Shown here piece by piece: positions 11,392 through 55,987 of a stretch of DNA of 56,269 bases (the stretch's first letter is position 1; each line of letters opens with the position of its first letter). The DNA is from Bacteroidota bacterium (GTDB taxonomy: Bacteria; Bacteroidota; Bacteroidia; Chitinophagales; LD1), in NCBI GenBank assembly GCA_040387015.1, contig JAZKEP010000183.1, forward strand, positions 1 to 56,269, given 5' to 3'. The position numbers and the translations under genes are program-made. The notes beneath the pieces were generated by a model. The model saw only the letters and a list, made by a program, of their open reading frames with translations. It was not told the DNA's origin and did no database searches.

Positions 11392-11471
11392 AAAGTGTTT
11401 TTTGATAATGAGGACGTGAAAGTAATCAGTACTATTTTAAAATAAGGAAAGAAAATGCTCAAACATGAATT

Positions 11472-11479
11472 TATATTTG
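11472..11479 (+). promoter_or_regulatory. TAnnTTTG -7 box candidate (TATATTTG) for the ACAD-SCP2 gene
   Basis: A perfect match 24 nt upstream of the ATG at 11504. It lies inside the longer ORF-track start (11465), which argues for the 11504 start. Confidence 0.4.
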
Positions 11480-11503
11480 TCAGCCAAAATTAATAGGGCC
11501 TAC

Positions 11504-16855: not shown

Positions 16856-16955
16856 GATCAGACAAACAAAGAAAACAGGTTTTGGTTGAAGAAGGGAGGA
16901 ATTAACGGTTGTTGAGAATAGTGCCAGTTCTTTTGCATCTATTCCTTCCCATAGC

Positions 16956-16963
16956 TATATTTG
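16956..16963 (+). promoter_or_regulatory. TAnnTTTG -7 box candidate (TATATTTG)
   Basis: A perfect match 69 nt upstream of the ATG at 17032 and inside the TTG-initiated ORF-track start (16909). Confidence 0.35.
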
Positions 16964-17031
16964 ATAGAAACAGAAAATTTCCCCTTCAACATATTGCAGT
17001 CTATTTTGTTTTAATGATTCAAACAGCGATT

Positions 17032-24900: not shown

Positions 24901-25038
24901 CCCATCGGGCATTACAAACGGGATAGTATATTTTGTGCTGAACTCTTTAATGTCGTCCAGTTGCCCATTGGGAACTTGTGCGTTGGACGAAAGCACCATC
25001 ATCATAACTGTGATCAGTAGTAGATAAAATTTTTTCAT
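21913..25038 (-). CDS. CocE/NonD (S15 X-Pro dipeptidyl-peptidase-like) family hydrolase with T9SS C-terminal sorting domain
   Basis: 1041-aa ORF with a signal peptide (MKKFYLLLITVMMMVLSSNAQ), a GASALG nucleophile motif (the CocE-type GxSxxG context) and a C-terminal IFPNPTTDKIQILV...KRFVVQ CTD. Confidence 0.75.
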   Translation of the reverse strand: MKKFYLLLITVMMMVLSSNAQVPNGQLDDIKEFSTKYTIPFVMPDGVKLFTDVYMPRVRDSLVVSMGNLNVLGSTLVTQPFTLIPLGAQVIFYPTLNGAPNPNPYQLPTVFTRTPYDKGDFDELGGIMPILGYNYMLQDMRGRYSSEGVYFPMMSDSWNKNAYHPEGHILDYLPATDPKFSNRHEDGYNSIKAIQDLDSTYISNLGRDDSAGVLIVRDSLLFRRWDSIAGSFFKNFTHTNTKINNGTIGMFGASALGNTQLQLALAHRCSDSLPSLKCLMPVVATTEHMISTGYNNGVFRDRIVTGWLKGQIFSGTDDDLMPFDNCATCRQNSIHTSNDYDLPKTIPINGIGKQFQNNKFEAANLSIDHFTAMRYNRRDGTLANAGFYPNSVGRPDMDGSIAFVNADGEAVDPATQLPLPDLTHSRYENQDIPVLQIQGWWDIFTEGSVNNLEYARKALAGKGAVQNMQKLIIGPWAHQTIAGRKSGDRIYPKNVTEVTRVDLSDFDINEVPINDIVKSDLVTWFRYNLNFQPGNVIGEPSFVIEESQRWQPLGELLGAPVEIRVPSSQFVVPFVDMVNFLGGHGDLDGLNIELRTLGQVIPLPAQKVPGSGAVLPSFGGGAALDSIPFRDFLNDVPNYRFYVAGPDSAADAIAGYPNSHLSGNYWVGSEKFPPDEHIQWKKMYMHQDGSFNYNPPIQDEGYKIYVSDPDDPILTVGGSNMIVRSPDGTRNSQSQMEMTDPTNAPFTMDREGVIQFNSDVIPDSITIMGMPVCTLYAKSNPGGVTSGPTDTDWDVRICDEWPDGRVYFVQEGIVNARGRDWARALVDQMGTEGAPTYVNGVEDPGDRDLPYSNINIGEVYEYVFKMMPIAYNWAAGHKIRVLINSTNYTRYQANPNLPLEDGEFFRRKPGDGQFYTFQGQQMFPRIAVQRVHFSPDHPTSINFPTYNKDFIYSSVEPITIDPKLEATIFPNPTTDKIQILVSKPGEHEVVITDISGRTITTAKFDDNVIFNVEDFSKGIYFATITDLNKKTDKITKRFVVQ

Positions 25039-32778: not shown

Positions 32779-32822
32779 GGTGTTGGATTATTTTGAATTC
32801 AATTTTCGCATTTTCGCACAAT

Positions 32823-33881
32823 ATGAAAAACATCAGTTGTATTGCTATTTCACTTATTCTGATTTCGCTGACAAGTTGTAACGGATGCAATAAAAACAAA
32901 AGTAGAGAAAAACCCGATGTCTCGAATATAAAAGCAGATGTTCATTTATTACGCTTTGATCAGGACCTGTTTTTGTTGAAGGAGAATAACTTTAAGGAGC
33001 ATCAGGAGTTAATGAAGAAGAAATATGGTGCATTCTATAATTTTTATGTAGATCAGTTTATAGTCGGCCCCAGACAGGCAGGTGACACAGCCAATATTGA
33101 AGAAGAGGCTGTAAAAAGATTTGTTACCGATGGATATATACAACGTTTGCAGGATTCTATTAACCTTCACTTTGCTGACACAAAAGGGTTGGAAGAAGAA
33201 CTTACACAGTCATTCAAGTATTTTAAATACCATTTTCCCGAAGCTACTATCCCGCAGGTGATTACTGTAAACTCAGGGTTTTCGCTGGGTGCATTTACCT
33301 ATGATAAAGATATTTTAGGAATCGGCCTCGACTTGTATCTGGGTGGCAATAACCCCGATTATGATAGTGCGGGAGTTTATGAATATGTACAACACAAAAT
33401 GAGTAGCGACTACATTGCCAGAAACTCTATGGAAGTGCTCTACAACTCCTACTTCAGTAATGAAGAGCTTTCACGGCAAAAGAATTTGATAGAGGCCATT
33501 GTGGATCAGGGTAAAAAATTGTACTTCCTCTCGTACGTTTTACCGGATGCTCCCGATAGCCTGATTTTAGGCTTTACTCAAAAACAAACAGATTGGTGTG
33601 AAAAGAGCGAATATGAAATCTGGAAGTTCATGAATGACAAGGATCTTCTTTATAAAAGCAACTTCATGGATCAAAAACGATATTTAGATGAGGGCCCTAC
33701 AACTTCAGGAATGCCCGCGGAATCTCCGGGCACTATTGGAAACTGGATAGGATTACAGGTAGTAAGAAAGTTCATGAAGGAGTCAGGCAATAAAATTTCT
33801 TTGCATGATTTGGTCGTGAGGTATGACGGTAAAACAATTTTTGAAAAGGCAAAGTATCGTCCCTCAAAATCTGTTTTCTGA
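32823..33881 (+). CDS. gldB: gliding motility lipoprotein GldB
   Basis: Start chosen at MKNISCIAISLILISLTSCNGC (lipoprotein signal with lipobox Cys). ESPGTIGNWIGLQVVRKFM and the C-terminal IFEKAKYRPSK match my recollection of Flavobacterium GldB. Adjacency to nadE is also seen there. Confidence 0.7.
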   Translation: MKNISCIAISLILISLTSCNGCNKNKSREKPDVSNIKADVHLLRFDQDLFLLKENNFKEHQELMKKKYGAFYNFYVDQFIVGPRQAGDTANIEEEAVKRFVTDGYIQRLQDSINLHFADTKGLEEELTQSFKYFKYHFPEATIPQVITVNSGFSLGAFTYDKDILGIGLDLYLGGNNPDYDSAGVYEYVQHKMSSDYIARNSMEVLYNSYFSNEELSRQKNLIEAIVDQGKKLYFLSYVLPDAPDSLILGFTQKQTDWCEKSEYEIWKFMNDKDLLYKSNFMDQKRYLDEGPTTSGMPAESPGTIGNWIGLQVVRKFMKESGNKISLHDLVVRYDGKTIFEKAKYRPSKSVF

Positions 33882-39946: not shown

Positions 39947-40885
39947 ATGAAGTCTATACTAAATTGGCTTAGGGTATTATTATTTTTCCCGTTGCTCTAT
40001 TTTTTGTTCCGTGAAGTACGTTTTCAGCAGATACAAGTTGCCTTACAGCATGTGGATTGGTGGTTGTTGCTACTGGCTTTTTTCCTCTACAGTTTGAAAT
40101 ATACCTTGCAAGGTCTAAGATGGTACAACGCTGCACTCGCTCACGGCCTTCATTATCCTGTTTTGTTTTTTGTAAAAACACAGTTTGAAATTGCTTTTCT
40201 TGAAATGTTATTGCCTATTCCCGACTCCGAAGATGCTCTGAGGATTATAAAACTACGCGGACAGTCGGTGAATGTTGCTAACAGTGTAGCGGTTACATTA
40301 TTCGACCGTGTCATGGGTGTATTATTTATACTAATGCTGCTTCCTTTCACCGGTTGGCTGATGGCAGCTATTTTATTCAAACACATCAAAATCAGCTATA
40401 TAGGAATCGTTATCGGTTTTATTCCGCTATTTCTCTTTGCTCTCAACTACCGAAAAATTATCGCTTTTATGTTAGCGCTAATTGAGAGATTTACCGAATT
40501 GAATCATTCCTTTTTCGAAAATCTAAAACTAAGCATGGTTCAAAAAATAGAACTTCGGTACCGTTTATACGGTTTGCTAGGAACAATTACGTTCGGATTA
40601 GCAGGGGCTTTTTGTATATGGTTGCTTGTTCATTCGTTAGGGGCCAAAGTATCTTTTATTTCGTTGCTGCTATGTATTCCCTTCTTCCAAGGGCTCGGAT
40701 TGTATGAATCAACATTGGTTTTCGTGTTGCAGCAAATGGGGATAGGTAACGAGATCGCTGTAGTGGCAGGCACTCTCCATTTCCTGTTTCACGTTATAAT
40801 AATTTTAGCCGGAGGTGGAGTCTTTATGACTAATCCGTTAAAAACAGATATCTCCTTACCAAACTTTATTACAAAAAGACTGTAA
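39947..40885 (+). CDS. flippase-like UPF0104 (lysylphosphatidylglycerol-synthase TM region family) membrane protein
   Basis: 312-aa ORF with about 8 TM helices. LQGLRWYNAALAHGL...FLEMLLPIPDSEDALRI resembles the conserved RW...G...P-x-x-G/S-E/D-x-x-R core of this family. Confidence 0.65.
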   Translation: MKSILNWLRVLLFFPLLYFLFREVRFQQIQVALQHVDWWLLLLAFFLYSLKYTLQGLRWYNAALAHGLHYPVLFFVKTQFEIAFLEMLLPIPDSEDALRIIKLRGQSVNVANSVAVTLFDRVMGVLFILMLLPFTGWLMAAILFKHIKISYIGIVIGFIPLFLFALNYRKIIAFMLALIERFTELNHSFFENLKLSMVQKIELRYRLYGLLGTITFGLAGAFCIWLLVHSLGAKVSFISLLLCIPFFQGLGLYESTLVFVLQQMGIGNEIAVVAGTLHFLFHVIIILAGGGVFMTNPLKTDISLPNFITKRL

Positions 40886-41398: not shown

Positions 41399-42304
41399 AT
41401 GAGGTTAAAATTATCTTTTGCATGTATACTACTTATTATTTCGGTGGCTGCCGTATGGGTCAATTATTCTCCCTTACCTCGTTATAAAATAAAATCACCT
41501 ATAGTTTCCGAAGAGTTTACCGCTTTACATAAAGCCGAAGGCAAACGCATAGTCCTTAGCATTTGTATTCATTGTCACTTAAATAGTCAAACCGGAACAC
41601 TTGCCGGAAAACAGCATGGTAATCCAAGACGATTGGGCGATTTCAATTCAGGGAATATTACTCAAGACTCAGCCACAGGGATCGGAAAATGGAATGCTTC
41701 GCAGTTATACTATTTTTTGAAAACCGGCATCAAACCAGACGGTGATTATGTGTTTGACATGCCTAAATATCCTAATCTCAGTGAAGAAGATATAATAAGC
41801 ATAATCGCGTTTTTAAAAAGTGATGATACTTTGGTGCGAAAAACATATCTTCTAAATCCCAAACCCCGGTTTTCGTTTCTTACAAAACTTCTTTTACATA
41901 CTGCTCTTCAGCCACCCATATTAGAAGATAAAACTGTCTCCTCACCTGATACTAATAACCAAATAGCCTTCGGAAAATACTTGGCTACCGCGAAGTTCAG
42001 TTGTTATGAATGTCACAGCCTAAATACCGTTACTAATAACTACAATCAACCCGAAAAAAGTTGGGGATTTTTTAAAGGTGGTAACCCGCATGTAAATGAG
42101 GATCGTGAAAAAATTTATACCCCCAACATCTCTGGAGATACACTTGAAGGAATCGGTAAATGGAGTGAAGAAGAATTTAAGCGTACAATAAAAAATGGAA
42201 TTAAACCGGATGGAACTACTATCCGAGACCCAATGTTCCCATTTTACTTACTCAGTGATAAAGAAGTGAGGTCAATATTTGCGTACTTAAAAAGCGTGGA
42301 ATAA
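41399..42304 (+). CDS. membrane-anchored dihaem c-type cytochrome
   Basis: 301-aa ORF with an N-terminal hydrophobic anchor and two CxxCH motifs (CIHCH and CYECH). Each lies in a ~130-aa repeat ending in IKPDG...M(P/F)...L(S)(E/D)(E/K)(D/E)...I..(F/Y)LKS. Confidence 0.8.
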   Translation: MRLKLSFACILLIISVAAVWVNYSPLPRYKIKSPIVSEEFTALHKAEGKRIVLSICIHCHLNSQTGTLAGKQHGNPRRLGDFNSGNITQDSATGIGKWNASQLYYFLKTGIKPDGDYVFDMPKYPNLSEEDIISIIAFLKSDDTLVRKTYLLNPKPRFSFLTKLLLHTALQPPILEDKTVSSPDTNNQIAFGKYLATAKFSCYECHSLNTVTNNYNQPEKSWGFFKGGNPHVNEDREKIYTPNISGDTLEGIGKWSEEEFKRTIKNGIKPDGTTIRDPMFPFYLLSDKEVRSIFAYLKSVE

Positions 42305-42349
42305 ACCCCCGATAGAAACCATTGTGTAATTCTTATTTTTGATTTCAAA

Positions 42350-42556
42350 ATGCCAAACAAATCAGAAAATGTATTCGGGAAATTGGTGGTAGAATTTGTA
42401 TGGGTGGTGGTGGTATTTGTAGTAGTCATTAACATTGCCTTTTTCAAAAAACCACTCAATCTCTATGCCTACACACTTAGCATTAAACTGTTGCTGAGCA
42501 TCACTGTGATTTTATTGTTTTTAAAAGCCTTATGGAGACAGAACAAATTGCACTAA
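42350..42556 (+). CDS. possible small two-helix membrane protein
   Basis: 68-aa ORF with two hydrophobic stretches. It overlaps the next start by 25 nt and could be spurious. Confidence 0.3.
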   Translation: MPNKSENVFGKLVVEFVWVVVVFVVVINIAFFKKPLNLYAYTLSIKLLLSITVILLFLKALWRQNKLH

Positions 42557-43809
42557 CCGCTCGGGCTCTTTATGGCTTTCACTTAACCGTACATTATCTG
42601 TTTGCGGATGTGCCTATAGGATTATCAACCATAGGTGTTATACTAAGTGTCGTTAATCTGATATATAAAAATAACAGCGAAGAGATCCGTGAGAAATATT
42701 TGCAGTTATTTTTAGTGTCTTGGATATTAGCTGCTACTTCCGCCCTTGTGTATGAATTGGAGTACCGGCATAACTGGTTGGGGGTGGATGAAATACTAAC
42801 AGAATTTTACAAGCGACCTTGGATTACCGACATTCCCATGCTGGGATTTTTTCTTACTGGCATTATTCTGATTGTTTGTTTTAAGCGGAAGCTATGGATC
42901 AATGACAAGGCGTTCTTGAGCCTCAATTTGTTTCTTTTTATTTCAGCAATTACTACCAATTTGTGGGCAATTACCCTTAATACTCTAATGCAACTCCCCG
43001 AAGGCATCAGCTATTCCAATGGTTACCTCCAATTAGATTCAGGGCTCAGCCCACTCGTGTTTTCAAGGTATAATCTTCTAAGGTTACTTCACATAATCGG
43101 TTCTGCCACTATAAAAGCAGGTATCATGATTGGATTAACAGTAGCCATTGACCGCAAAAGGATGTTGCCTGAATATTTATCCTACCACCGGTTTATGCTA
43201 AAAACAGTGTTGCTGTTTATTGTAATTACAGGTATATCAGGCCACTTTAAAGTGTTAGTGATTGCAGAAAAGAGAGTACATACCTTTTTAATGATGGAGG
43301 GAATAAAAGATACTTCAACAAAATCAAATATATGTTTGTTCTGTTTGCCGGATAAGGAGAAGAATATACAAGGTTGGTCCATTAAAAACGGAATGAGATA
43401 TCTTATGCCAGCGAAACTATATGAAGGACTGGACCAAAATATAGGAACCGAACCCTATAATAATTATGGGGAAAGCATATTTACAAGTTACCATGTTATG
43501 CTTTGGGGATGGCTCATGCTATCCGTTTCGGTTGTGTTAGCATTGTTCTTGAAGAATCCATCTATTTATCTACACCTATTTATGTTAGGTACCGCATTAA
43601 TAAGTATTTTATGTGGCTGGTATGTTGCAGAGTTGGGAAGACAACCTTGGGCATTTTGGGGAATAGTAAAAGTAAACGAACTAATTACTCCCGGACTTAC
43701 TTCCGAACATTTGTATCTGAGTAAACTCGTTACTGTAGTTAACACATTCGTTTTATTCATAATGGCCATATTTGCGACAATTTTTGTCATCAAGCCTTTG
43801 AGGAAATAA
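42532..43809 (+). CDS. cytochrome bd oxidase subunit I (CydA)-like protein, divergent, short Q-loop
   Basis: 425-aa ORF aligned by eye to E. coli CydA. LTVHYLF matches the His19 region, LLHIIGS the His186 region and YHVML the Met393 region. GWYVAELGRQPWAF matches the conserved GRQPW motif. Confidence 0.65.
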   Translation: METEQIALTARALYGFHLTVHYLFADVPIGLSTIGVILSVVNLIYKNNSEEIREKYLQLFLVSWILAATSALVYELEYRHNWLGVDEILTEFYKRPWITDIPMLGFFLTGIILIVCFKRKLWINDKAFLSLNLFLFISAITTNLWAITLNTLMQLPEGISYSNGYLQLDSGLSPLVFSRYNLLRLLHIIGSATIKAGIMIGLTVAIDRKRMLPEYLSYHRFMLKTVLLFIVITGISGHFKVLVIAEKRVHTFLMMEGIKDTSTKSNICLFCLPDKEKNIQGWSIKNGMRYLMPAKLYEGLDQNIGTEPYNNYGESIFTSYHVMLWGWLMLSVSVVLALFLKNPSIYLHLFMLGTALISILCGWYVAELGRQPWAFWGIVKVNELITPGLTSEHLYLSKLVTVVNTFVLFIMAIFATIFVIKPLRK

Positions 43810-43884: not shown

Positions 43885-45549
43885 GTGACCTTCGCCTTGA
43901 ATGAATTACTACAGCGCTTTAAATCTTTTTTTCTTGGGATTTCAGAAAGTCACCAGAAAACACTTTGCCTACTGCTGCTTCTGGCTTTACATACAGGCTA
44001 TTATTTTAACTCGGGGCTTTATCAATGTCGCTATAGTTTATTCGAAGATCAGGAGATATTGATTACAACCGAAAAAATTAAAAATGCAGGAGTTCTTGAG
44101 GCGTTTACCGAACAAATACAATATGAAACAAGAGGAAGATTCAGGCCATTTTTTGTAGTGTATCGGATAGGGGCTTGCGCTCTTTTCGGTGACAATATTC
44201 AATGGCATCATCATTTTTTCTATACTGTATTTGTAATTAATACACTTTTACTTTTTTGTTGGGCCAGCCTAATTGGTTTTTCTCCTCTTCTTTCGCTAAT
44301 GTCCTCGCTATTAGTATTTATAGGCACTCAATCTAATATAGGTTGGCGATTAGCTAACGGGGAAAATTTTGCGATGCTCTTCTTAAATGTCGGCATCCTT
44401 TGTTTCCTATGTGGCCTAAATCTGAGAAAAATAAATTTCCTCTTAGCTGGTGGTTTGTTGATTCTACTAGCTGCTTTAAATAAAGAATCATTTATATTCT
44501 GTTATGGATTTTTTCCGCTACTGTACTTAAGGAATACTCTGAAGGAAAAGCCAAATTGGGGGAAATTCTGGTCACTTTCTTTATTAGCAGCAGGATGCAT
44601 TGGCCTATATATAATCTGTATCCGCTTATTTATTATGGATCCCGATGCAATGAAATATGCGGGCAGCACAATTTCATTTAAGGATGTTTTAGAACTTCAA
44701 TTTGGAATGTTTACAACACAAAATTACGTTGTAAACTATCCTCGTATTTGGCAGACCTTCATTTTCCAAGGGTCATACTTCCAACCCTACATACTTCTTT
44801 TTGCTTTAACTACTGGAGCCAGTTGCCTTTACCTTCCGTTTCGCAAGTTTCTGTTATATAACATCGCAATAGCATTGGCACTATTAGTTGTACACAAGTT
44901 GCTTTATCTGCGAATAATATTATCTAATATTTATTTGTACCCTGCAATCGTAACCATTGGGTTTGCAGTCATAAATCAAATAGATCTTCTTTTTAAACAT
45001 CAGAAAAAATTGCCAGCTACAATCCTGCTAGTAGCTATAATTTCTGTAATAATAACTCAGGGAAAGCTTAGCTATTCTTATGCTGCGAATTACTCCTCGG
45101 AGAATGACGCAGCTATTGCATTGACTGATAATTTGGCAAAAATTTGCACAAATACACCGCTTTATATTCAAGCTGATCCTTTATTACATGTAGAATTTAT
45201 ATATGGTATAAAAACCAGATTAAAATCATTAGGATGTCCCAGTAAGTTTTTTTGTTCTGTTTTTGAACAAGGTGATACTGCTGAGGCACTACGTATTATG
45301 AAAGTAAGTGACCCAGCTTTAATTCCTTTTATTAGAAATCAATTTCACAAACAGTTCTCAGATAAAATTGTTAAGCAAAAACCGGAAACAAGTTTAGACG
45401 GAAAAAATAATTGGGTGGTTATTCAGCGCCCCGGCAAAAGTCCTAGAAAGTTTGAAGAAGTAGAACGGGGGCAATATACGCAAAGCACATATAATGCTCC
45501 GGGATTTTACACCATCAGCACACTCCTCCCGACAACCACGCGAAATTAA
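43885..45549 (+). CDS. large polytopic membrane protein, GT-C-like glycosyltransferase candidate
   Basis: 554-aa ORF (GTG start in the track) with about 12 hydrophobic helices. The first loop has acidic residues and GRFRPFF. The soluble C-terminal ~150 aa fit the usual GT-C (ArnT/PMT-like) layout. Family not verifiable by eye. Confidence 0.5.
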   Translation: MTFALNELLQRFKSFFLGISESHQKTLCLLLLLALHTGYYFNSGLYQCRYSLFEDQEILITTEKIKNAGVLEAFTEQIQYETRGRFRPFFVVYRIGACALFGDNIQWHHHFFYTVFVINTLLLFCWASLIGFSPLLSLMSSLLVFIGTQSNIGWRLANGENFAMLFLNVGILCFLCGLNLRKINFLLAGGLLILLAALNKESFIFCYGFFPLLYLRNTLKEKPNWGKFWSLSLLAAGCIGLYIICIRLFIMDPDAMKYAGSTISFKDVLELQFGMFTTQNYVVNYPRIWQTFIFQGSYFQPYILLFALTTGASCLYLPFRKFLLYNIAIALALLVVHKLLYLRIILSNIYLYPAIVTIGFAVINQIDLLFKHQKKLPATILLVAIISVIITQGKLSYSYAANYSSENDAAIALTDNLAKICTNTPLYIQADPLLHVEFIYGIKTRLKSLGCPSKFFCSVFEQGDTAEALRIMKVSDPALIPFIRNQFHKQFSDKIVKQKPETSLDGKNNWVVIQRPGKSPRKFEEVERGQYTQSTYNAPGFYTISTLLPTTTRN

Positions 45550-46382
45550 GTAGGGTTTTCAACTAATTTTTTGACTTTCCCGAACAGACTCTTACGCATT
45601 TTCAATTGTCTGTAGAGCAGATTGAAATAATAAAAATTGATAGTGATAATATTAAAAGTATGGGGATGATTAACAACTCCATATTCCTTACTAAATATTT
45701 TGTCCTCATTTACAAAAGTTCCAAAAATTCTGTCCCAAAGAATTAAAATACCTCCATAGTTTTTGCCATAAGCAGCTCTACCACTATGATGATGTACCCG
45801 ATGATGAGACGGAGTAACAAACAAATACTCAATCCAAGCTGGCATTTTTTTGATGTAGTTATTATGCGAGAAGAATTGAAACGCTGCGCTTGTTACATAT
45901 GCAGCCAAGATAATCTCCGGTGAAAAGCCAATAAAAGCTAATGGTATATAAAACACTCCAAAGACATGTTGGGTAACACCCTGCCTTAGACCCACTGAAA
46001 AATTGAATTCTCTAGAGCTATGATGGACGATATGGGAGGCCCAGCCTAAAGAAGTATTATGGCCAATTCTATGTGCCCAGTAATACAGAAAATCCAACAA
46101 TAAAAGACAACAAAAGAAGGAGATAAAATTATCTGCAAGTTTGACAGGACTTATATTGTGAACCTGAATGAGTACTTGAATTGCAATTGCCTTAATGATT
46201 AAACCAGTCATTACCGTGCCAAGCATGCCTGCAGAAATGTTTAACAACACATCTTTAATCCTGTCAGTTTTTCCTTCCTTAATCAGAAAAGTAATCGCCT
46301 CTAGCACAATTACTGCAAGATATAGTAGAATAAAATACTTAAAATCTTCCGCCTTCATACAGTGGTTTAAAACACCTCCCAA
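45546..46382 (-). CDS. fatty acid hydroxylase / sterol desaturase superfamily membrane protein
   Basis: 278-aa ORF with three His boxes: HRIGH, HIVHHSS and HHRVHHH. Confidence 0.8.
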   Translation of the reverse strand: MGGVLNHCMKAEDFKYFILLYLAVIVLEAITFLIKEGKTDRIKDVLLNISAGMLGTVMTGLIIKAIAIQVLIQVHNISPVKLADNFISFFCCLLLLDFLYYWAHRIGHNTSLGWASHIVHHSSREFNFSVGLRQGVTQHVFGVFYIPLAFIGFSPEIILAAYVTSAAFQFFSHNNYIKKMPAWIEYLFVTPSHHRVHHHSGRAAYGKNYGGILILWDRIFGTFVNEDKIFSKEYGVVNHPHTFNIITINFYYFNLLYRQLKMRKSLFGKVKKLVENPT

Positions 46383-47355: not shown

Positions 47356-48273
47356 TTATAGTAAATGCGCCTTTACCTTATCATATTGTTTCTTACCGAG
47401 AGAAGAAAAATACTTCTGATGCGTTAAAAGCTCACTCTTCTCCTTACCCCTTTTGCTTGAAGCAAAGTGATTCCTATAAATATATCGGTCGGTCCAAAGA
47501 AATAACTCTTGCACCAAGGGCTTAAATGGATGAAAAACCACCTCGACTTCCAAATTTTTTTCGTTTCTTATATAAATCAAAAAATGTTCGATAAAACTCT
47601 GAGTCAATTCACCGCTCTTAACCGTGCTAAATGTATAGTCCGAGAAGCTAATTTTTTGATCACGTAATTTGTTTTCATACTTACCCGTAAAGCTAAATAT
47701 TCGCAAAATCAGAAGCTTGAGAATACCAGCAGATAAAAAACACTGGGGATATCTACTTAGTATGAATAACCATGACTCCCGCACAATTCTGATACTCTTT
47801 GTAGGATATTTTTTGCTTAGCTTAAGAATAGAATCAAAAACTATTGGAACCAAATGTGTGCATCTTTCTCCATCTAACTTCAAGGGCCTTCTTAATGATT
47901 CAAACAGCGGCAAGACTTTAATGATTTGTTGTTCCATTTCATTATAAATCTCGGATCGTAATTTATTTCTTTCTGAATCACATAACAATAAATTTCTCCA
48001 AAAAATTCCCTCAAATCCTTTATCTAATTGTCCCTTGTTATTTGTCAGTAATTTCGAATCGGCAAGAGCACAGCCCTGATCCAAGTTCAGATGAAGTACT
48101 AAATTGATGTTTTTTTCTTTTCTCTTTAGAAGTTCTTGCACCGAATAGTCGAAAGCGTATCCGTTAGCCATTATACTTATACTGTTTATTACTCCGGCAT
48201 CTATACATTCAAGAATGTCGTCTGTAATTTTCTTTGTAAGACCATAATCATCTGCATGTAGATAAATTTTCAC
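47356..48273 (-). CDS. ChbG/YdjC (HpnK-like) family carbohydrate deacetylase
   Basis: KIYLHADDYGLTKKITDDILECIDAGVINSISIMANG is the YdjC N-terminal signature. I place the start at the GTG at 48273 (MKIYLHADDYG). The ATG at 48357 would overlap the divergent gene by about 60 nt. Confidence 0.7.
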   Translation of the reverse strand: MKIYLHADDYGLTKKITDDILECIDAGVINSISIMANGYAFDYSVQELLKRKEKNINLVLHLNLDQGCALADSKLLTNNKGQLDKGFEGIFWRNLLLCDSERNKLRSEIYNEMEQQIIKVLPLFESLRRPLKLDGERCTHLVPIVFDSILKLSKKYPTKSIRIVRESWLFILSRYPQCFLSAGILKLLILRIFSFTGKYENKLRDQKISFSDYTFSTVKSGELTQSFIEHFLIYIRNEKNLEVEVVFHPFKPLVQELFLWTDRYIYRNHFASSKRGKEKSELLTHQKYFSSLGKKQYDKVKAHLL

Positions 48274-48295
48274 ATTTCTATATTTAACCTTCCGA

Positions 48296-49909
48296 ATGAG
48301 TATGAAAAACAATAATACAAAAATCGCTTTAGCATTAATCTCGGTTTTGGTCACCATTATGCTTACATCTCCGGTGGTGTATGGTTATTTATTTTGTCCC
48401 CTGGATAGTAAGTTTTTGGGGGTTGCGGGTTTGCGGCCAATTGAACAATTTTATTACTTCAGCGAAGGTCCATCACAGGCTATTAGAGGACATCTTTTGT
48501 TTACTGATAAATACGGACGCCTGCCCGCTGCAGACATTCTTATCAACCCAATAGGTAATATTATCGGATTGATTTCGCAAGTAACAGGCACATCCCTATC
48601 TATTGCTTTTAATATTTTCAGAATAGCATCTTCCTTGTTACTTATTTTTTCTTTTTACTTTTTAGCCAAACAAATTATTACCTCTTCTTTTACTTTGTTA
48701 GTAGCCATCATTTTGTATTGCTTCTCGGCAGGCTTTGACTCTATCTTTCATCTGTTCAATTTTTCGCTTATTGATGCTGTGGATGATTCCATGCCCGAAG
48801 CAAATATGTTTATCTCCATGAGCGGTGAATACTACCTTCCTTTAGCAAATGCTTTATTTATTTTAACGTTATCGTTTGCATATAAACTTATTTACAAAAA
48901 GCAGAAACAGATGTTGTTATGTGGACTTTCGTTGTTGACATTAGGTGCAGTGTACGTGTATGGGTTAGTGACAGCCGTTATAATTATTTCCATTGCAGCC
49001 CTTTACACTGGCTACTCGGAAAAGCAAACAAAACGTGCTATCATCATAATATCCAAATTGTTGTTATTCTGCTTGCCTATCGTTGGGTATTATTTATGGT
49101 TAGTTTTTCGATTCCCCTCTATTGACGATGAGGGCTGGTTTTCCTTTCCGAATTTTTGGGCTTTGATATCAACTTTTGGCTTCGCCTTTCTTTTTGTAAC
49201 TCTTGGATTGTTTCTTAAAAGTCGAAGAAAAATTTCTGATGAGACGTTTCTTTTGCTCTGGGTAGCTATAACATTGATCCTTGTTTATTTACCTCAACCC
49301 TTCTTACCGATTCAGATTCAGATACTTATAGGCTTAGGAGCACCTCTTTCCATCATGTTTACTACATCGCTGGAAACAATAAGTAAATTGGCCTTCCAAA
49401 AAATTACGGCCTTGAGCAAAAATGCACGGAACGTCCTGTCAGGCATGTTTATTTTCAGTATAGCCGTACTTAGTGCCAGCACAAATTTTAGCTTCTATAC
49501 CCAACAATTCAGCGATTTGCAGAAACATGTTTTGCCTTGGTACATAGACTCTGAAGTATATAATGCCATGGAGTGGTCAGCTCAAAATATTTCGGAAAAA
49601 AAACTTGTAATTACCTCTAGAAAACTAGGATTTATTTTTTCATCAGTCACAGCTTGCCCCGTCTATACGGGAGTAGCAAGATTTCGTGAAAAAACACTAG
49701 AACAGAAGGATACAGAAAAAGCGTTAAAATTACTTAAAGCAAATAGAGTTGAAGAAGCAAGTCAACTATTTAGTGAAACTGAGGCTGACTATATATTTCT
49801 AGATAAATCATTGTCTGGAGCTGATTTTCAAAAATTCACTACTCTCTTAAAGACAATTTACGTTGAACGCTTTAACAATCCGGAGGTTTCAATTTTTCAA
49901 CTTAAATAA
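48296..49909 (+). CDS. large polytopic membrane protein with soluble C-terminal domain, GT-C-like candidate
   Basis: 537-aa ORF with about 11 hydrophobic helices. An early extracytoplasmic loop has DAVDDSMPE, and about 130 aa at the C-terminus are hydrophilic. No family verifiable by eye. Confidence 0.5.
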   Translation: MSMKNNNTKIALALISVLVTIMLTSPVVYGYLFCPLDSKFLGVAGLRPIEQFYYFSEGPSQAIRGHLLFTDKYGRLPAADILINPIGNIIGLISQVTGTSLSIAFNIFRIASSLLLIFSFYFLAKQIITSSFTLLVAIILYCFSAGFDSIFHLFNFSLIDAVDDSMPEANMFISMSGEYYLPLANALFILTLSFAYKLIYKKQKQMLLCGLSLLTLGAVYVYGLVTAVIIISIAALYTGYSEKQTKRAIIIISKLLLFCLPIVGYYLWLVFRFPSIDDEGWFSFPNFWALISTFGFAFLFVTLGLFLKSRRKISDETFLLLWVAITLILVYLPQPFLPIQIQILIGLGAPLSIMFTTSLETISKLAFQKITALSKNARNVLSGMFIFSIAVLSASTNFSFYTQQFSDLQKHVLPWYIDSEVYNAMEWSAQNISEKKLVITSRKLGFIFSSVTACPVYTGVARFREKTLEQKDTEKALKLLKANRVEEASQLFSETEADYIFLDKSLSGADFQKFTTLLKTIYVERFNNPEVSIFQLK

Positions 49910-51680: not shown

Positions 51681-52988
51681 TTAAAACTCCATCGTTGTTT
51701 TCCAATCGGCAACAGGAAGAAGTGGACACGAAAAATTTTCCTGATAGTTGACGCCTTTAAACAACTTATCGCTTCTGACAACTCTGAAATAAAGCAGCTT
51801 TTCGAAAGACCGCACCTTTTGTCTGGAAGTATCAGCAACGTAAAAACTGACCGAAAATATTCCATGATTGAGAATGCCTTTGGGCAATTTTACAGTTTGT
51901 GTGTAATTGCCTTCCAAAGTTATATCCACAAAGTCATCTTCGCGTTTAATGCGATATGGAGAAAGACTCATAATATTATTGCCGAACCTGTCTGCAATCA
52001 CCGCCGATAATATCACAGGTATGTTTAGCAGTTTTTCATACGAGAAACTTATTTCCACTTCATCATCCATATATATTTCGGATGTTACTGCTTTACCGGC
52101 TGACCTGACAAGCGCCCCTTTCAAGCGAATTTTAGTATCAACGGGGTTATGCTCATCGCTTCCCTGGACCTGAGTTGGCAATAGAGGTAAGTCTCCTGAC
52201 TTTTGATTTTCTGAGTTAGGCCTTGCGGCAACACCGCTTTTCAAAAAAATATAGTTATTGCTGTTCACATATTTTTCAATGATACTCTGAATAGTGTCAA
52301 ATCCCTTCGAAGTTCCCTGTTCGAGCAACAAACCATGTGTGCATAAACTTTGCACTGTTTTCATTTCGTGACTGGCGAGAATGATAGTTCTTCCGCGCGC
52401 TGCAATTTCTTTTATCCGCGCAGACGATTTCTCTCTAAAGTTCATATCGCCAACACTCAACACTTCATCCATAATCAGAAGATTAGATTTGAGTGTGGTG
52501 TACAAACTGAATGCCAAACGCATGAACATGCCGCTTGAATAATGTTTAACGGGTGTCTCCTTAAATTGCTTCAACTCGCTGAATTCAAAAATATCTTCCA
52601 GCACTTCTTCAATCTCTTTTTTTGTGTAACCCATCAAACGGGCAACCATGTATACATTGTCAATACCAGAAAGATCGGGATGAAAACCTGAACCGATGTC
52701 AAGTATAGAAGAAAGCTTGCCGCGGTAACTGATACTGCCTTTGTCCGGCTTCAGCAAACCCGAGATAATTCTCAAAAGAGTTGATTTACCAGCTCCGTTA
52801 TTTCCTACAATTCCAAGTATCTCCCCTTGTTTTAGTTGAAAACTAATATTGTTCAAGGAAACAACTTCGCGCACCGTAGAGCCTACCCCCTGCAAAGTGC
52901 CATCATCGTAACCTTTAAAAGTTTTTCCGATTCCGTTTACTTCCAGCACAATATTTTCACCCAACATAACTAAATAGCCTTTTGACAT
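51681..52988 (-). CDS. Wzt/TagH-like ABC transporter ATP-binding protein with C-terminal extra domain
   Basis: Walker A is GIVGNNGAGKST. The signature YSSGMFMRLAF is typical of polysaccharide or teichoic-acid exporters. Walker B is LLIMDEVLSVGD and the H-loop is LASHE. About 170 extra C-terminal aa follow. Start chosen at MSKGYLVMLGENIVLEV. Confidence 0.8.
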   Translation of the reverse strand: MSKGYLVMLGENIVLEVNGIGKTFKGYDDGTLQGVGSTVREVVSLNNISFQLKQGEILGIVGNNGAGKSTLLRIISGLLKPDKGSISYRGKLSSILDIGSGFHPDLSGIDNVYMVARLMGYTKKEIEEVLEDIFEFSELKQFKETPVKHYSSGMFMRLAFSLYTTLKSNLLIMDEVLSVGDMNFREKSSARIKEIAARGRTIILASHEMKTVQSLCTHGLLLEQGTSKGFDTIQSIIEKYVNSNNYIFLKSGVAARPNSENQKSGDLPLLPTQVQGSDEHNPVDTKIRLKGALVRSAGKAVTSEIYMDDEVEISFSYEKLLNIPVILSAVIADRFGNNIMSLSPYRIKREDDFVDITLEGNYTQTVKLPKGILNHGIFSVSFYVADTSRQKVRSFEKLLYFRVVRSDKLFKGVNYQENFSCPLLPVADWKTTMEF

Positions 52989-53055
52989 GCTAAAATAACA
53001 GCATGGTTCCCAATTAAACATACTTTTCATAACAAAACAAACTAACGTTTATTTT

Positions 53056-53067: not shown

Positions 53068-53955
53068 ATGGCGAAAGTGTTGATACATATTGGATATCCT
53101 AAGGCGGGCTCCACTTATTTACAGGAGTGGTATTCGCGTCATCCTGCCCTTCACTATAAGGGTAAAGGAGTCTTGGGTTTTGATAACAATTGGGATATTG
53201 CCACTTACGCTGAAACAACAGAAAAGTTGCATGAATGTTTTGTTTTAAGCAGTGAAGACCTTAGCGTTTGGAAGGGAGAAATGGATATGTCTACCCTTGA
53301 TAACAAAAAAGACTTTGACATACGCGCTTATCAGGAAAAACTTGCAGATACTTTGTTTGCCGTGTTCCCTAATGCACAAATTCTTATATGCACCCGCGGG
53401 TTTGAGTCTATGCTTTACGCCATGTATAATCAAAATGTTTCCATAGGAGGTATTCTCAGATTCAAAGATTTTATGGCGAAGCTAAATGTGTATCTGGCTG
53501 ATTTTTATGATTATAGTTTTGTTATTCAGCTTTACCGCGAAAGATTTGGCAAGAATGTACTTGTGCTGCCGGTTGAGCTTTTAAAGGATGATAGTAAAAA
53601 ATTTGTCCGGCTCATTGAAGATGCCATAGAACTTGAGCATCGCTATTATTTACCCGCAGTCGTAAATGCTTCTATGAACAATAGTTTTATTCATACTTAC
53701 CTCGTTTTTTCAAAAACACTGTATTCCTTGCTCAAGTTGTTTCCGGCTTCATTCAATCAAAAGGTTTATCAGAAGTATGTTCGAATGCTGGCAAAGGAAA
53801 AGCCCCATCCGTTTATGAAGGCAATGAATCGTTTAATAAACGGAGAAACAGATTTGAAAGTAAAGCCTGAAGATTTGAATCTATTCAGAGACAAGGCTGA
53901 AATTCTTAGGAACGAACCTCTGTATCAACCTTACCTGAAAGATTATTTGCTTTAG
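53068..53955 (+). CDS. sulfotransferase family protein
   Basis: 295-aa ORF. IGYPKAGSTYLQEW matches the PAPS 5-prime-phosphosulfate binding loop (PKxGTTxL). ICTRGFESMLYAMY resembles the 3-prime-phosphate binding R..S motif. Confidence 0.65.
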   Translation: MAKVLIHIGYPKAGSTYLQEWYSRHPALHYKGKGVLGFDNNWDIATYAETTEKLHECFVLSSEDLSVWKGEMDMSTLDNKKDFDIRAYQEKLADTLFAVFPNAQILICTRGFESMLYAMYNQNVSIGGILRFKDFMAKLNVYLADFYDYSFVIQLYRERFGKNVLVLPVELLKDDSKKFVRLIEDAIELEHRYYLPAVVNASMNNSFIHTYLVFSKTLYSLLKLFPASFNQKVYQKYVRMLAKEKPHPFMKAMNRLINGETDLKVKPEDLNLFRDKAEILRNEPLYQPYLKDYLL

Positions 53956-54855
53956 TTAACTCTCCGAAAAAAACTTAGAAAAGAACGATTTGGGCTTTTC
54001 AAGTTGAGGGAACTCACCGGGAAATTCGGATATAAGAAATTTTATCAAGTCTGGTTCGTGAACATTCAAATCCTGGTAAGGATATTTTTTTATGAAGGGC
54101 ACTTGTTCAACTACCGTTGGATGATTTACACTATCATAGGCAATAAAGAAATCATGATCAGGAGCGTACACTTCCACATCCTTAATTTCGGTTTGAGGCT
54201 TGATATAATAGAGAAGGAATTGCGCTTCAGCGGGTCGCATGTTTACTACCGCAGCTAGTCGCATATTATTAGTGAAATTAGTATTTGAACCATGCACTAC
54301 CCGGTGGTCCCAAGCCACAGCATCACCTGGCCCCAGGTAAATATCAGTAAGATACTTGTGTAACCTTTCAGTAGGAATATGCCTGAATGTATCCGGGATA
54401 GAAACACCCCTTGTGTAATCAAACAGGCGATGACTGCCTTTCAAAAGGCAAATTGCTCCATTTTTATCATTGGTCTCATCCAGGGCCACCCACATATTTA
54501 TAGAGCGGTACCTCGTTTCATCCACATGTGCCCAATCTTGATGCAGGTGCATAGCACTATCAGGCTTGGGGTGTTTCACAGACATAGCAGCAAAAACCGG
54601 TACGTAATCATTCAGATATTTCTGTGCAGCCGGAACGAGTACTTTCTGAACCCCCAAATCAATGTTCGCTTTAGTATCACCTCCTTCAATCCAATGGCTT
54701 ACATAAAATGATTTGTTCGCATTATCCATTCTGTTCTGTTCATATACCTGGCGCAAATCTTTTACTTCATCTTTATTGATGAGATTACGAATAATGGTAT
54801 AACCATATTTCGCAAATTTTTCCTCCATATCATCGGCATTAAAAACTCTCTTCAT
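53956..54855 (-). CDS. phytanoyl-CoA dioxygenase (PhyH) family Fe(II)/2-oxoglutarate oxygenase
   Basis: 299-aa ORF with an HxD facial-triad start in HLHQDWAHVDE and the distal His in DHRVVHGS. Confidence 0.75.
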   Translation of the reverse strand: MKRVFNADDMEEKFAKYGYTIIRNLINKDEVKDLRQVYEQNRMDNANKSFYVSHWIEGGDTKANIDLGVQKVLVPAAQKYLNDYVPVFAAMSVKHPKPDSAMHLHQDWAHVDETRYRSINMWVALDETNDKNGAICLLKGSHRLFDYTRGVSIPDTFRHIPTERLHKYLTDIYLGPGDAVAWDHRVVHGSNTNFTNNMRLAAVVNMRPAEAQFLLYYIKPQTEIKDVEVYAPDHDFFIAYDSVNHPTVVEQVPFIKKYPYQDLNVHEPDLIKFLISEFPGEFPQLEKPKSFFSKFFSES

Positions 54856-54991: not shown

Positions 54992-55987
54992 ATGGATACA
55001 TCTGCAAATACAGAAAAGTTATTCCCCGCTCGTCACACTTTTGTGCGCAACGAAGCACTTAGAAATGAATTACATGAAGGCGGCTATAAGGTCGTTGGCG
55101 GCTTAGGTAAGGATGTTATTGAAGAAATAAATGCACTTTATAACAGCAGCCACGATTTGAAAGAAACCGGAATGTTTTATACCCTGTATTCCAAAGACAT
55201 CGCCTATCGTCAGCGCATTTTCGATTCGTTAAATAAAATTTTATCAGCGTATTATGATGAGCATTTAACTGACTATAAGATTGCTTACAACATTTTTGTG
55301 GTGAAAAACCCGGGTAAGGAAAGTGAATTTTTTGTTCACCAGGATCCTAGTATGGTAGATGAGTTTAAATATTCTCCTCTCCATATCTGGTTGCCTTTGT
55401 GTGATATTGATGAAAACAACGGGGCACTTTGTTTAACTCCCGGCACCAATCATCTATACATGCCATACCGGAGTGTGGCATTCCCTAATGCGTTTGAAAA
55501 AGTAAACGATTTGGTGCGCGACTACATGATGCCTGTATATATGAAGGCAGGAGAAGCTATCTTCTTCGACCCGCGTGTAGTGCATTGTTCGCTGCCTAAT
55601 TTCTCTGATAAAACCCGTGTGGCTGTGCTCACTGGAGTGGTGCCTAAAGAAGCCGAAGTGATAATCACACACCAAGAGCCCGATGAGGCAACTAAGATTG
55701 AACTGATTAGACAGAAAGATGATTTCTATATTCAGGCTGATGATTTTTATCTTACCTGCAAGTGTCGTCCTGCTTTGGGAACTTTATCGCAAGTGGTGAG
55801 CTATACACCGCCTGTTTATAGCAAAGAAGATTTTTTGGAGTTCACAAAGAAAAAGGGATTAAGCCCTTTAAATATTTTGCCTCCGTCTTTAAACACCGAG
55901 TGTATAATGTATGGCGAACCTATTCAGGCAAACAATAAGTACCATAGTAAGAATGCGCCCGCTGATGTTATGTTAGGGCACAAATAG
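54992..55987 (+). CDS. phytanoyl-CoA dioxygenase (PhyH) family Fe(II)/2-oxoglutarate oxygenase
   Basis: 331-aa ORF with HxD in FFVHQDPSMVDE and the distal His in DPRVVHCS. Confidence 0.75.
   Translation: MDTSANTEKLFPARHTFVRNEALRNELHEGGYKVVGGLGKDVIEEINALYNSSHDLKETGMFYTLYSKDIAYRQRIFDSLNKILSAYYDEHLTDYKIAYNIFVVKNPGKESEFFVHQDPSMVDEFKYSPLHIWLPLCDIDENNGALCLTPGTNHLYMPYRSVAFPNAFEKVNDLVRDYMMPVYMKAGEAIFFDPRVVHCSLPNFSDKTRVAVLTGVVPKEAEVIITHQEPDEATKIELIRQKDDFYIQADDFYLTCKCRPALGTLSQVVSYTPPVYSKEDFLEFTKKKGLSPLNILPPSLNTECIMYGEPIQANNKYHSKNAPADVMLGHK

Follow-up and report, generated by a model that had tools for sequence, protein, structure and literature searches.

A channel-less CydA-like protein with no CydB alongside, encoded with a dihaem cytochrome c and a flippase-like protein in Bacteroidota tailoring clusters

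Cytochrome bd oxidases have been treated as CydAB quinol oxidases and pursued as antibiotic targets. What, then, is to be made of a subunit I that has no subunit II beside it? Contig JAZKEP010000183.1 (GenBank assembly GCA_040387015.1) comes from a Bacteroidota bacterium of the order Chitinophagales, and its whole 56,269 nucleotides (nt), here termed the window, were analysed. On one strand it encodes in succession a membrane protein resembling the flippase of MprF, a putative lipoprotein, a membrane-anchored dihaem cytochrome c, a 68-residue peptide and a homologue of cytochrome bd subunit I (CydA), with genes of the kind involved in glycan or lipid tailoring further on (Table 1). An initial annotation had described the last three open reading frames (ORFs), i.e., the cytochrome with its two CxxCH sites, a possible 68-residue two-helix peptide and a 425-residue CydA homologue, and had suggested that they make up an electron-transfer module of a different kind, within a tailoring cluster. 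All three are present as described, and the conserved partners and context set out below support the proposal.

That the CydA-like product belongs to the bd superfamily is plain from its match to PF01654 (134.2 bits, the cutoff being 26.2), in which its residues 10-420 cover positions 2-414 of the 418 in the profile, and the motifs LTVHYLF, LLHIIGS, YHVML, VAELGRQPW and ITDIPMLGFFLTG were all found in its ORF. In a hydropathy scan the protein has nine transmembrane (TM) helices, TM6 and TM7 being separated by a loop of ~77 residues, and the chain stops after TM9. The AlphaFold2 (AF2) model, from a 32-sequence alignment, has a predicted local distance difference test score (pLDDT) of 91.1 and a predicted template modelling score (pTM) of 0.91. 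Its top 10 PDB matches in Foldseek are all CydA chains, with template modelling scores on the query (TMq) of 0.66-0.81, CydB chains being at ~0.55-0.6, and as CydA chains outrank CydB chains in that search, the ORF is to be seen as of the subunit-I type and not as a disguised subunit II. Contigs from two further samples cover the region in part, and differ from it by single-nucleotide polymorphisms only, with no indels and no joints.

Residue correspondences were taken from pairwise HMMER alignments to solved bd oxidases and from multiple sequence alignments (MSAs) that included the CydA proteins of E. coli and Geobacillus; they are given here in E. coli numbering with the window residue in brackets. 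By eye, His19, His186 and Met393 had been considered to be retained together with GRQPW, and this is upheld by both kinds of alignment: the active-site haem ligand His19 (H21) and the two ligands of haem b558, His186 (H187) and Met393 (M323), are kept, as is Arg448 of the GRQPW motif (R370). To that list can be added the haem b595 ligand Glu445 (E367), and the conserved site residues Asn148 (N150) and Trp441 (W363) are kept also. The proton channel is quite a contrast. Glu107 is replaced (Thr109), as are Ser140 (Thr142), His126 (Phe128) and Glu99, a residue of both the channel and the haem d site, whose counterpart is Ile101 in the MSA and Asp100 in the pairwise HMMER alignments. The initial annotation was therefore right that this region is without glutamate, though there is a carboxylate close by, Asp100 being just one residue before the Glu99 position in the MSA. 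At the quinol site Glu257 is kept (Glu256), and Lys252, which had not been commented on, is lost (Thr251). The Q-loop, as had been proposed, is of the short type, with the span from His186 to Met393 being 136 residues (E. coli, 207; Geobacillus, 139).

How rare is such a protein? A word-indexed search of 5.8 billion protein clusters yielded two close relatives only, a 99% identical fragment contig and a protein, P0002, that is 51% identical. An exhaustive HMMER search of 1.84 billion representatives gave 469 hits, just six of them below 1e-30, and when functional columns were tabulated for the 107 full-length hits, 14 representatives proved to be without both channel glutamates. These channel-less sequences form one clade in a neighbour-joining tree, with the window protein and P0002 a long-branched pair inside it, and the clade amounts to ~14 clusters at 50% identity among those 1.84 billion representatives, all from metagenome-assembled genomes (MAGs) or metagenomes. 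A scan of the 185,579 species genomes of GTDB with two clade-specific peptide patterns found no orthologue. Against E. coli CydA the clade scores 99.5% by hhalign. The ligand retention first seen in a single sequence extends across all 18 clade sequences for His19, His186 and Glu445, and falls short of that for Met393, which is in 16; Arg448 and Asn148 are likewise invariant and Trp441 is retained in 17. Glu99, Glu107 and Ser140 are replaced in 18/18, with His126 lost too. Lys252 is retained in 15/18 and Glu257 in 14/18, the exceptions at the former position being Thr in the window protein and P0002 and Asn in a third member, P0023. Neither the window protein nor any clade representative has a CxxCH. 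Judged by sequence, the clade is a rare and previously uncharacterised Bacteroidota group of the bd superfamily, of subunit-I type.

A separate observation concerns the periplasmic Q-loop, where a predicted β-strand bears a CxxC (C268 and C271 of CLFCLP, residues 268-273, nucleotides 43333-43350). It is common to the window protein and its 51% identical relative only, i.e., 2/18 of the clade, and so co-occurs with the loss of Lys252. It was considered as a haem c site and rejected, as it has no His and is in so few of the sequences.

Table 1. Genes of the module and its neighbours in the window
Feature	Position	Strand	Remarks
LPG_synthase_TM / MprF-flippase-like membrane protein, 312 aa	39947..40885	+	PF03706 at 67 bits (cutoff 33.4)
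Putative lipoprotein, 133 aa	40943..41344	+	N-terminal hydrophobic segment ending LLSGC; no Pfam or NCBIfam match
Membrane-anchored dihaem class-I cytochrome c, 301 aa	41399..42304	+	two Pfam Cytochrom_C domains
Two-helix membrane peptide, probable small subunit, 68 aa	42350..42556	+	frame overlaps start of CydA-like gene
CydA-like (cytochrome bd subunit I family) protein, 425 aa	42532..43809	+	PF01654; 9 TM, short Q-loop, proton channel lost
Polytopic membrane protein, probable GT-C-type glycosyltransferase, not CydB, 554 aa	43885..45549	+	family in 7 loci
FA_hydroxylase-superfamily membrane di-iron hydroxylase (OlsE-like)	45546..46382	-	PF04116 at 95 bits; NF052566 OlsE E 8e-19, below cutoff
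Protein with weak GNAT-like match, 319 aa	46367..47326	-	Acetyltransf_9 E 0.0014, below cutoff; syntenic in L001
YdjC-family (HpnK / chitooligosaccharide deacetylase-like) sugar deacetylase	47356..48357	-	PF04794 at 91.5 bits; TIGR03473 E 7e-14, below cutoff
Polytopic membrane protein, ~10 TM, 537 aa	48296..49909	+	family 8, 6 loci; no Pfam or NCBIfam match
Polytopic membrane protein, 574 aa	49889..51613	-	family 4, 8 loci; related to family 27 (hhalign 99.2%); no Pfam match
Wzt/TagH-like ATP-binding subunit of polysaccharide-export ABC transporter	51681..53030	-	ABC_tran
Sulfotransferase-like gene	53068-53955	+	Pfam match
PhyH-family Fe/2-oxoglutarate dioxygenase	53956-54855	-	Pfam match
PhyH-family Fe/2-oxoglutarate dioxygenase	54992-55987	+	Pfam match

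Where is CydB? That none follows the CydA-like gene was part of the initial annotation, and this stands. The 554-residue neighbour has an hhalign probability of 0.2% against E. coli CydB, no cydB adjoins the CydA-like gene or its partners in the 15 other loci that were compared, and the count for all 16 is 0/16, over the 8-10 kb around each or, where contigs are short, as far as these reach. Over its full length the window has no second CydA and no CydB match. PF02322, the CydB family, has no match in the precomputed annotation of the clade contigs L001-L012; none was found in Pfam and NCBIfam scans of the recurrent large membrane families, nor, in a Pfam census of 90 genes from the other loci, among the families that recurred; and E. 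coli CydB gave no match by phmmer and, by hhalign, ≤0.6% for every polytopic family. A control gives the measure of that last figure: the CydA-like clade itself also scored 0.1% against E. coli CydB, i.e., single-sequence CydB profiles are insensitive. As for the neighbour, in its family E54-D55-x-E57 is invariant after TM1, the family profile matches, at E 2.5e-26, a protein (P0169) that passes the PMT_2 (GT-C) cutoff, and one member reaches 26.7 bits on PF19528 (GT_STM0557_N), the cutoff of which is 27; on account of the PMT_2 link and the near-threshold score it is probably a GT-C-type glycosyltransferase. In word-indexed homologue searches, with the single sequence and with a profile of seven, the only matches were the protein itself and one PMT_2 protein, the comparison of the family profile with PDB sequences was negative, and AF2, from a 2-sequence alignment, gave an unusable model (pLDDT 35).

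The small ORF overlaps the CydA-like ATG by 25 nt and specifies two hydrophobic helices. It is 38% identical (E 5e-15) to its equivalent in L001, the contig of P0002. In all 12 loci that have a CydA-like gene there is a two-helix ORF of 60-88 residues that ends 0-34 nt past the start of that gene, and one Lys (K46, at the start of helix 2) is invariant in the 12. What had been put forward as a possible peptide is thus real, and it is a probable genuine conserved subunit gene. Its profile has no similarity to CydB or to any PDB chain. The known small subunits CydX and CydS are different in kind, being single-TM peptides of ~30-40 residues encoded, in the E. coli order, downstream of cydB, whereas the peptides here have two TM helices and are encoded upstream of the CydA-like gene.

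The cytochrome c has an N-terminal hydrophobic anchor, and its CxxCH sites are at residues 56 and 202. Both are in register in its orthologues, which are 47-66% identical. The motifs VFDMPKY (M121) and DPMFPF (M279) are conserved, M279 in 13/13 long orthologues and M121 in the five aligned, and these methionines are candidate sixth haem ligands. In the PDB it is nearest to two triheme cytochrome c subunits of membrane-bound dehydrogenases, matching the first two haem domains of 8gy2_B (alcohol dehydrogenase subunit II; E 4e-14) and 7W2J_C (fructose dehydrogenase subunit C; 1e-13), with the alignment spanning both haem domains of the window protein. The dehydrogenase subunits, however, have three haem domains while the window cytochrome has two and a helix anchor at its N-terminus, and neither the families of the loci nor the Pfam census includes a dehydrogenase catalytic subunit encoded nearby. 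One Ignavibacteriota locus (L019) was set aside as having an unrelated cytochrome c, 26% identical, with no flippase-like or CydA-like gene.

A scan of genomes for CydA-like patterns having given no further loci, the cytochrome c was used as an independent bait, and 13 more were obtained from MAGs of Chitinophagales, Chitinophagaceae, Flavobacteriales, ‘Chryseobacterium sp.’ and Bacteroidia, and from Joint Genome Institute (JGI) metagenomes. The census that follows is of hidden Markov model and family counts over 16 non-redundant loci, the window included. A flippase-like gene is in 15, with the 16th (L004) having one 8 kb away. The dihaem cytochrome c is in 14, and the adjacency to it that had been remarked on in the window is kept in 10 of the 12 loci with a CydA-like gene; the exceptions are L004, with a transposase/integrase insertion, and L006, at a contig end. 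The CydA-like gene is the one with the lower count, 12/16, there being none within 10 kb in L013, L014 and L018, and L025 being at a contig edge. In L001 gene order is that of the window, from flippase-like gene through cytochrome c, 68-residue ORF and CydA-like gene to large membrane protein, with the FA_hydroxylase gene, one for a 323-residue protein and the YdjC gene on the opposite strand as in the window. The other clade contigs, L003-L012, repeatedly have the small ORF at the CydA-like start, a PF03706 gene and a cytochrome c of ~260-300 residues. Each locus has a single CydA-like gene, without a paralogue adjacent in any. Because gene order is shuffled among the MAG loci of Chitinophagales, Flavobacteriales and Bacteroidia, the linkage is not a single inherited arrangement.

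The loci without a CydA-like gene are instructive. In L013, L014 and L018, which are Bacteroidota MAGs with 10-kb flanks, a flippase-like gene is directly followed by the orthologous cytochrome c, with neither CydA-like gene nor two-helix peptide. It is therefore with the flippase-like gene, and not with the CydA-like one, that the cytochrome c has its tightest linkage, and the pair is the core unit, with the CydA-like protein and its peptide an optional add-on. The components also differ in their rate of change: between loci the cytochrome c, at the identity given above, is far ahead of the CydA-like protein (17-26%) and the flippase-like protein (23-27%). Invariant in the last are F84, E86, P90, P92, E95, D96, R121, Q248, G249, G251, E254 and H278; as that is a single invariant His, haem binding by this protein was rejected. 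The 133-residue putative lipoprotein has no counterpart in the other loci (its family, 31, is unique to the window), and so is probably outside the conserved module. A peculiarity of the window flippase-like gene is that ~10 residues just before the QG.G..E motif (40650-40730) are missing, which 14/15 homologues have, a Pro and a Ser present in those 14 included. Logan contigs of run X1 break at the same place, 40657/40729. Either the gap is an artefact of assembly, or the strain has an in-frame deletion of its own by which the protein could be impaired.

To what part of the bd superfamily does the clade belong? Its relationship to the qOR, OR-C and OR-N families was assessed through the residue and TM vectors in Supplementary Table 6 of Murali, Gennis and Hemp (bioRxiv 10.1101/2021.01.16.426971). 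It fits none of the published vectors, and the nearest is that of qOR1-3 minus the proton channel. Those authors refer to a ‘long branch within qOR1 missing the proton channel’ that was filtered out and is not further described in their text or supplements, and to which the clade may correspond; apart from that mention no literature was found on such a CydB-less module of CydA-like protein and cytochrome c. With the short-Q-loop CydA proteins of qOR1-3, e.g., that of Geobacillus thermodenitrificans (5DOQ), the window protein shares Pfam family, fold (TMq ~0.8), the nine TM helices, the Q-loop type, qOR1-type spacing of the Glu99 and Glu107 positions, and all of His19, His186, Met393, Glu445, Arg448, Asn148, Trp441 and GRQPW. 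It departs from them in the replacement of Glu99, Glu107, Ser140, His126 and Lys252, in the absence of CydB, and in the upstream two-TM peptide, the cytochrome c and flippase-like partners and a genomic context that is non-respiratory. The qOR4b proteins, or CydA', are without equivalents of His186, Met393 and Glu445 and are paired with a qOR4a CydA, whereas the window protein keeps the ligands and has no partner CydA.

OR-C proteins are the obvious comparison, since these CydA homologues are believed to function with cytochrome c and in the absence of CydB (bioRxiv 10.1101/2021.01.16.426971), and one of this haem c-fused type, the Fervidibacter sacchari CydA, ‘likely operates without CydB’ (PMC11535203). 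In both there is a bd-superfamily protein lacking CydB and associated with c-type haem, and plausibly using cytochrome c instead of, or besides, quinol. There the likeness ends. OR-C1a has eight TM helices, a CxxCH fused in a C-terminal periplasmic extension, an OR-C1b paralogue with which it is paired, no equivalents of His186, Met393 and Glu445, and Glu99 and Glu107 kept (bioRxiv 10.1101/2021.01.16.426971); the window clade is its opposite, with nine TM helices, the b558 and b595 ligands present, the channel glutamates absent, no CxxCH, a separate gene for cytochrome c and no paralogue. As the pattern of residues, helices and genes differs throughout, the association of each with cytochrome c looks convergent. 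The OR-N proteins, the ‘bd-like oxidases’ of Nitrospirota, Chloroflexota and others, have 10-14 TM helices, are usually in a/b paralogue pairs and have other residues at Asn148 and Trp441 (bioRxiv 10.1101/2021.01.16.426971). They resemble the clade in having neither a canonical CydB nor a canonical quinol site and in being in operons with alternative electron donors, and OR-N3b, in particular, also keeps the His, Met and Glu ligands while missing Glu99 and Glu107. The clade, in contrast, has nine TM helices and no paralogue, and Asn148 and Trp441 are kept almost without exception. By these comparisons, then, the window protein is a separate channel-less offshoot with the canonical nine-TM, short-Q-loop architecture and not a member of OR-C or OR-N. 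The initial annotation had raised membership of the CydB-less CydA-like clades as a question; the described OR-C and OR-N groups are not where the protein is to be found.

What of the surroundings? In the window and its relatives there are genes for sugar and carrier-lipid chemistry (GT2 proteins, DegT aminotransferases, YdjC, UbiA-like prenyltransferases, a Wzt/TagH-like ABC ATPase), for acyl chains (sets of AMP-ligase, KAS III and GNAT, and GDSL proteins), for radical SAM/B12 enzymes and for many O2-dependent hydroxylases (PhyH, Asp_Arg_Hydrox, FA_hydroxylase, WelO5). PhyH genes account for 8/90 neighbouring genes in the related loci; the FA_hydroxylase gene, syntenic in L001, is present also in L006 and L009, and YdjC is syntenic in both L001 and L009. 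The Wzt/TagH-like product matches NCBIfam models of teichoic-acid and galactan export ATPases at E 1e-52 to 2e-49, below their cutoffs. The Arn, Gtr and Bordetella Lgm systems for modification with polyprenyl-phosphate sugars combine a GT2 with a flippase and a GT-C enzyme, and clusters of the window type have GT2, DegT and YdjC proteins, the flippase-like protein and large GT-C-like membrane proteins. By analogy, the make-up is that of a pathway which would build a polyprenyl-phosphate-linked sugar, flip it, and transfer or tailor it at the periplasmic face. We know of no Arn, Gtr or Lgm system with a cytochrome c or a bd-type haem protein.

Other features of the clusters and of the window can be noted more briefly. 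Three unrelated polytopic families of 537-574 residues, almost unannotated, recur in 6, 8 and 7 of the 16 loci (the 537-, 574- and 554-residue proteins of Table 1, respectively), and may be uncharacterised GT-C-like transferases or polymerases. A further family (16; L021 14312-15673, and in L017, L018 and L025), comprising polytopic proteins of 408-453 residues beside a GT2 gene, resembles UbiA-type prenyltransferases in its N-terminal region (NCBIfam PRK12875 E 1e-13, below cutoff), and PAP2-like phosphatases are in three loci, L011, L013 and L018; we take this UbiA-like and PAP2-like content to resemble, loosely, the mycobacterial decaprenyl-phosphate-sugar pathway. The content of G and C is 0.41-0.47 over 2-32 kb of the window and drops to 0.34-0.40 over 32-56 kb, the tailoring cluster, a pattern typical of horizontally mobile envelope-polysaccharide islands, and in L004 and L005 a transposase/integrase pair adjoins the CydA-like gene. 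Upstream of the cluster are three acyl-CoA dehydrogenase paralogues (6457-7815, minus strand; 11465-13036 and 20154-21842, plus strand), one SCP2-fused and one AidB-like, and an amidase gene (9946-11391, minus strand), which probably belong to unrelated lipid catabolism. Por_Secre_tail, the sorting domain of type IX secretion, is on three proteins (1706-3151, 16909-19395, 21913-25038), namely a secretory lipase-like protein, one of 828 residues and an S15 peptidase, and with GldB (32793-33881) they confirm a gliding or type IX secretion system-bearing Bacteroidota host. A scan for promoters and terminators, which omits Bacteroidota promoter types, gave nothing above shuffled controls.

How might such a module function? 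The reading that we favour, tentatively and with a little less than even confidence, is that the CydA-like protein is a functional haem-binding bd protein of subunit-I type that does without CydB, is one part of a conserved membrane module in glycan/lipid tailoring clusters, and is a non-electrogenic electron sink coupled to cytochrome c. The module would comprise the CydA-like protein, the two-TM peptide, the periplasmic, membrane-anchored dihaem cytochrome c and the MprF-flippase-like (LPG_synthase_TM) protein. On the periplasmic face the cytochrome would exchange electrons with haem b558 (His187/Met323), from where they would go on to the high-spin haem pair (His21/Glu367), at which O2 would be reduced with periplasmic protons; as a dedicated sink the module would re-oxidise the cytochrome c, which in turn would sustain an oxidation, at the periplasmic face, of whatever the flippase-like protein handles. 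That the reaction would be non-electrogenic follows from the cytoplasmic proton pathway (Glu99, Glu107, Ser140, His126) being gone. Since Lys252 is replaced by Thr, it can be argued that quinol is not the donor for the window protein and P0002, and with the lysine of the quinol site gone, the path from cytochrome c by way of b558 and the high-spin pair to O2 is the simplest consistent one for the window protein. The direction of that flow, into an O2 sink, is on its own perhaps more doubtful.

Several considerations weigh against the sink. The clusters have no evident dehydrogenase from which the cytochrome c could receive electrons, and the O2-dependent hydroxylases there are probably enzymes of the cytoplasmic face that require no partner in the periplasm. 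The flippase-like protein and cytochrome c manage without the CydA-like protein in L013, L014 and L018, so it is dispensable for the role of that pair. In E. coli mutants Glu99 and Glu107 matter for assembly of haem d/b595, and their loss could mean that the O2 site is not functional. As most of the clade keeps Lys252 and Glu257, quinol oxidation, and hence the opposite direction of electron flow, is plausible for most of its members. The CydB negatives that come from single-sequence profiles are weak, given the control score, and a very remote CydB would be missed by them; the search was of sequence around each locus in MAGs and metagenome contigs rather than of complete genomes, so that a cydB could be elsewhere. 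Finally, no RNA runs have the window sequence, the runs which hold it being only DNA runs of a watershed metagenome.

The main rival turns the module round. The CydA-like protein would oxidise menaquinol at the Q-loop and pass electrons via b558 to the cytochrome c, in effect a miniature quinol:cytochrome c reductase that supplies reducing power to tailoring at the periplasmic face. The QPxKxAAxEG-like motif in which most of the clade has its Lys252 and Glu257 fits this well, as does the thermodynamics, since electrons that leave menaquinol for a His/Met c-type haem by way of a b haem run downhill, and so too does the fact that the best-conserved component, the cytochrome c, is tied most tightly to the flippase-like and not to the CydA-like gene. 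On the other hand, the lysine is gone from three members, the window protein among them, no periplasmic reductive enzyme is evident in the family census of the clusters, and the invariance of His19, Glu445 and Arg448 is more than a pure quinol:cytochrome c reductase needs; we regard this source as distinctly unlikely. Could it instead be an ordinary auxiliary respiratory oxidase, with O2 as acceptor and either cytochrome c or quinol as donor, which is simply carried along on a low-GC envelope-polysaccharide island without any functional link to glycan or lipid tailoring? The composition of the cluster, the transposase/integrase pair in L004 and L005 and the normally respiratory role of bd-type enzymes are all compatible with it. 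Yet linkage to the flippase-like and tailoring genes persists over divergent orders in the 16 loci despite the shuffled order, the cytochrome c and flippase-like pair persists without the CydA-like gene, and without its proton channel the protein no longer has what makes a respiratory bd oxidase energy-conserving; all this makes the idea quite improbable.

The CydA-like protein might also be a haem-binding but catalytically inert scaffold or sensor paired with another membrane protein, in which it would be like the channel-less ‘b-type’ paralogues, CydA' and OR-N3b, that act as subunit II. Loss of both channel glutamates with some ligands kept does resemble the OR-N3b vector, and the CydA-like sequences evolve fast relative to the cytochrome c. 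However, the four haem ligands with Arg448, Asn148 and Trp441 are strongly constrained, the fold is nearer to subunit I than to subunit II, and no locus has an ‘a-type’ CydA paralogue adjacent, all of which render it very improbable. Hardly probable at all is a canonical CydAB whose cydB is elsewhere in the genome, or is represented by the flippase-like or 554-residue protein diverged beyond recognition. CydB does diverge fast, its single-sequence profile is insensitive, the loci are known from contigs with no complete genome, and the AF2 model of the 554-residue protein is too poor to show its fold; but neither PF02322 nor a CydB-like match was found around any of the 16 loci, the flippase-like protein is a confident member of PF03706, the 554-residue family has its GT-C/PMT_2 links, and the clade has distinctive residue losses and a two-TM peptide dedicated to it. 

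The favoured reading, of a cytochrome c-coupled sink, can be extended further. Envelope biosynthesis would then have taken over an enzyme of the bd superfamily from respiration. The complex would have four components, with the two-TM peptide and/or the flippase-like protein replacing CydB beside the channel-less CydA, and its three-haem centre, wired to the dihaem cytochrome c, would carry out or drive oxidation of a flipped polyprenyl-phosphate-linked sugar or lipid on the periplasmic side. As it stands that is unlikely. Direct oxidation of the polyprenyl-linked sugar at the former quinol site was also considered, and rejected, since without a hydride-accepting cofactor it would seem chemically unlikely.

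The diversity of the bd superfamily (OR-C, OR-N, CydAA') has been mapped recently, and nearly all of it is biochemically uncharacterised. What is new here is an uncharacterised CydA clade, CydB-less and channel-less, with the complete set of ligands for three haems retained, with a novel set of partners and in a non-respiratory genomic setting. It is a natural test of the need for CydB and for the Glu99/Glu107 channel, and it offers an apparently independent second way for a bd-type protein to be coupled to cytochrome c. In the Bacteroidota, periplasmic tailoring of glycans or lipids may include a redox step that relies on haem, for which the module is a concrete candidate, and the uncharacterised UPF0104/HpnL-like ‘flippase-like’ family gains its first consistent redox partner. 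If recruitment into envelope biosynthesis is true, it would be the first such case in the bd superfamily, and a new kind of membrane machine for redox tailoring rather than a terminal oxidase. The finding suggests a respiratory enzyme reused for another job.

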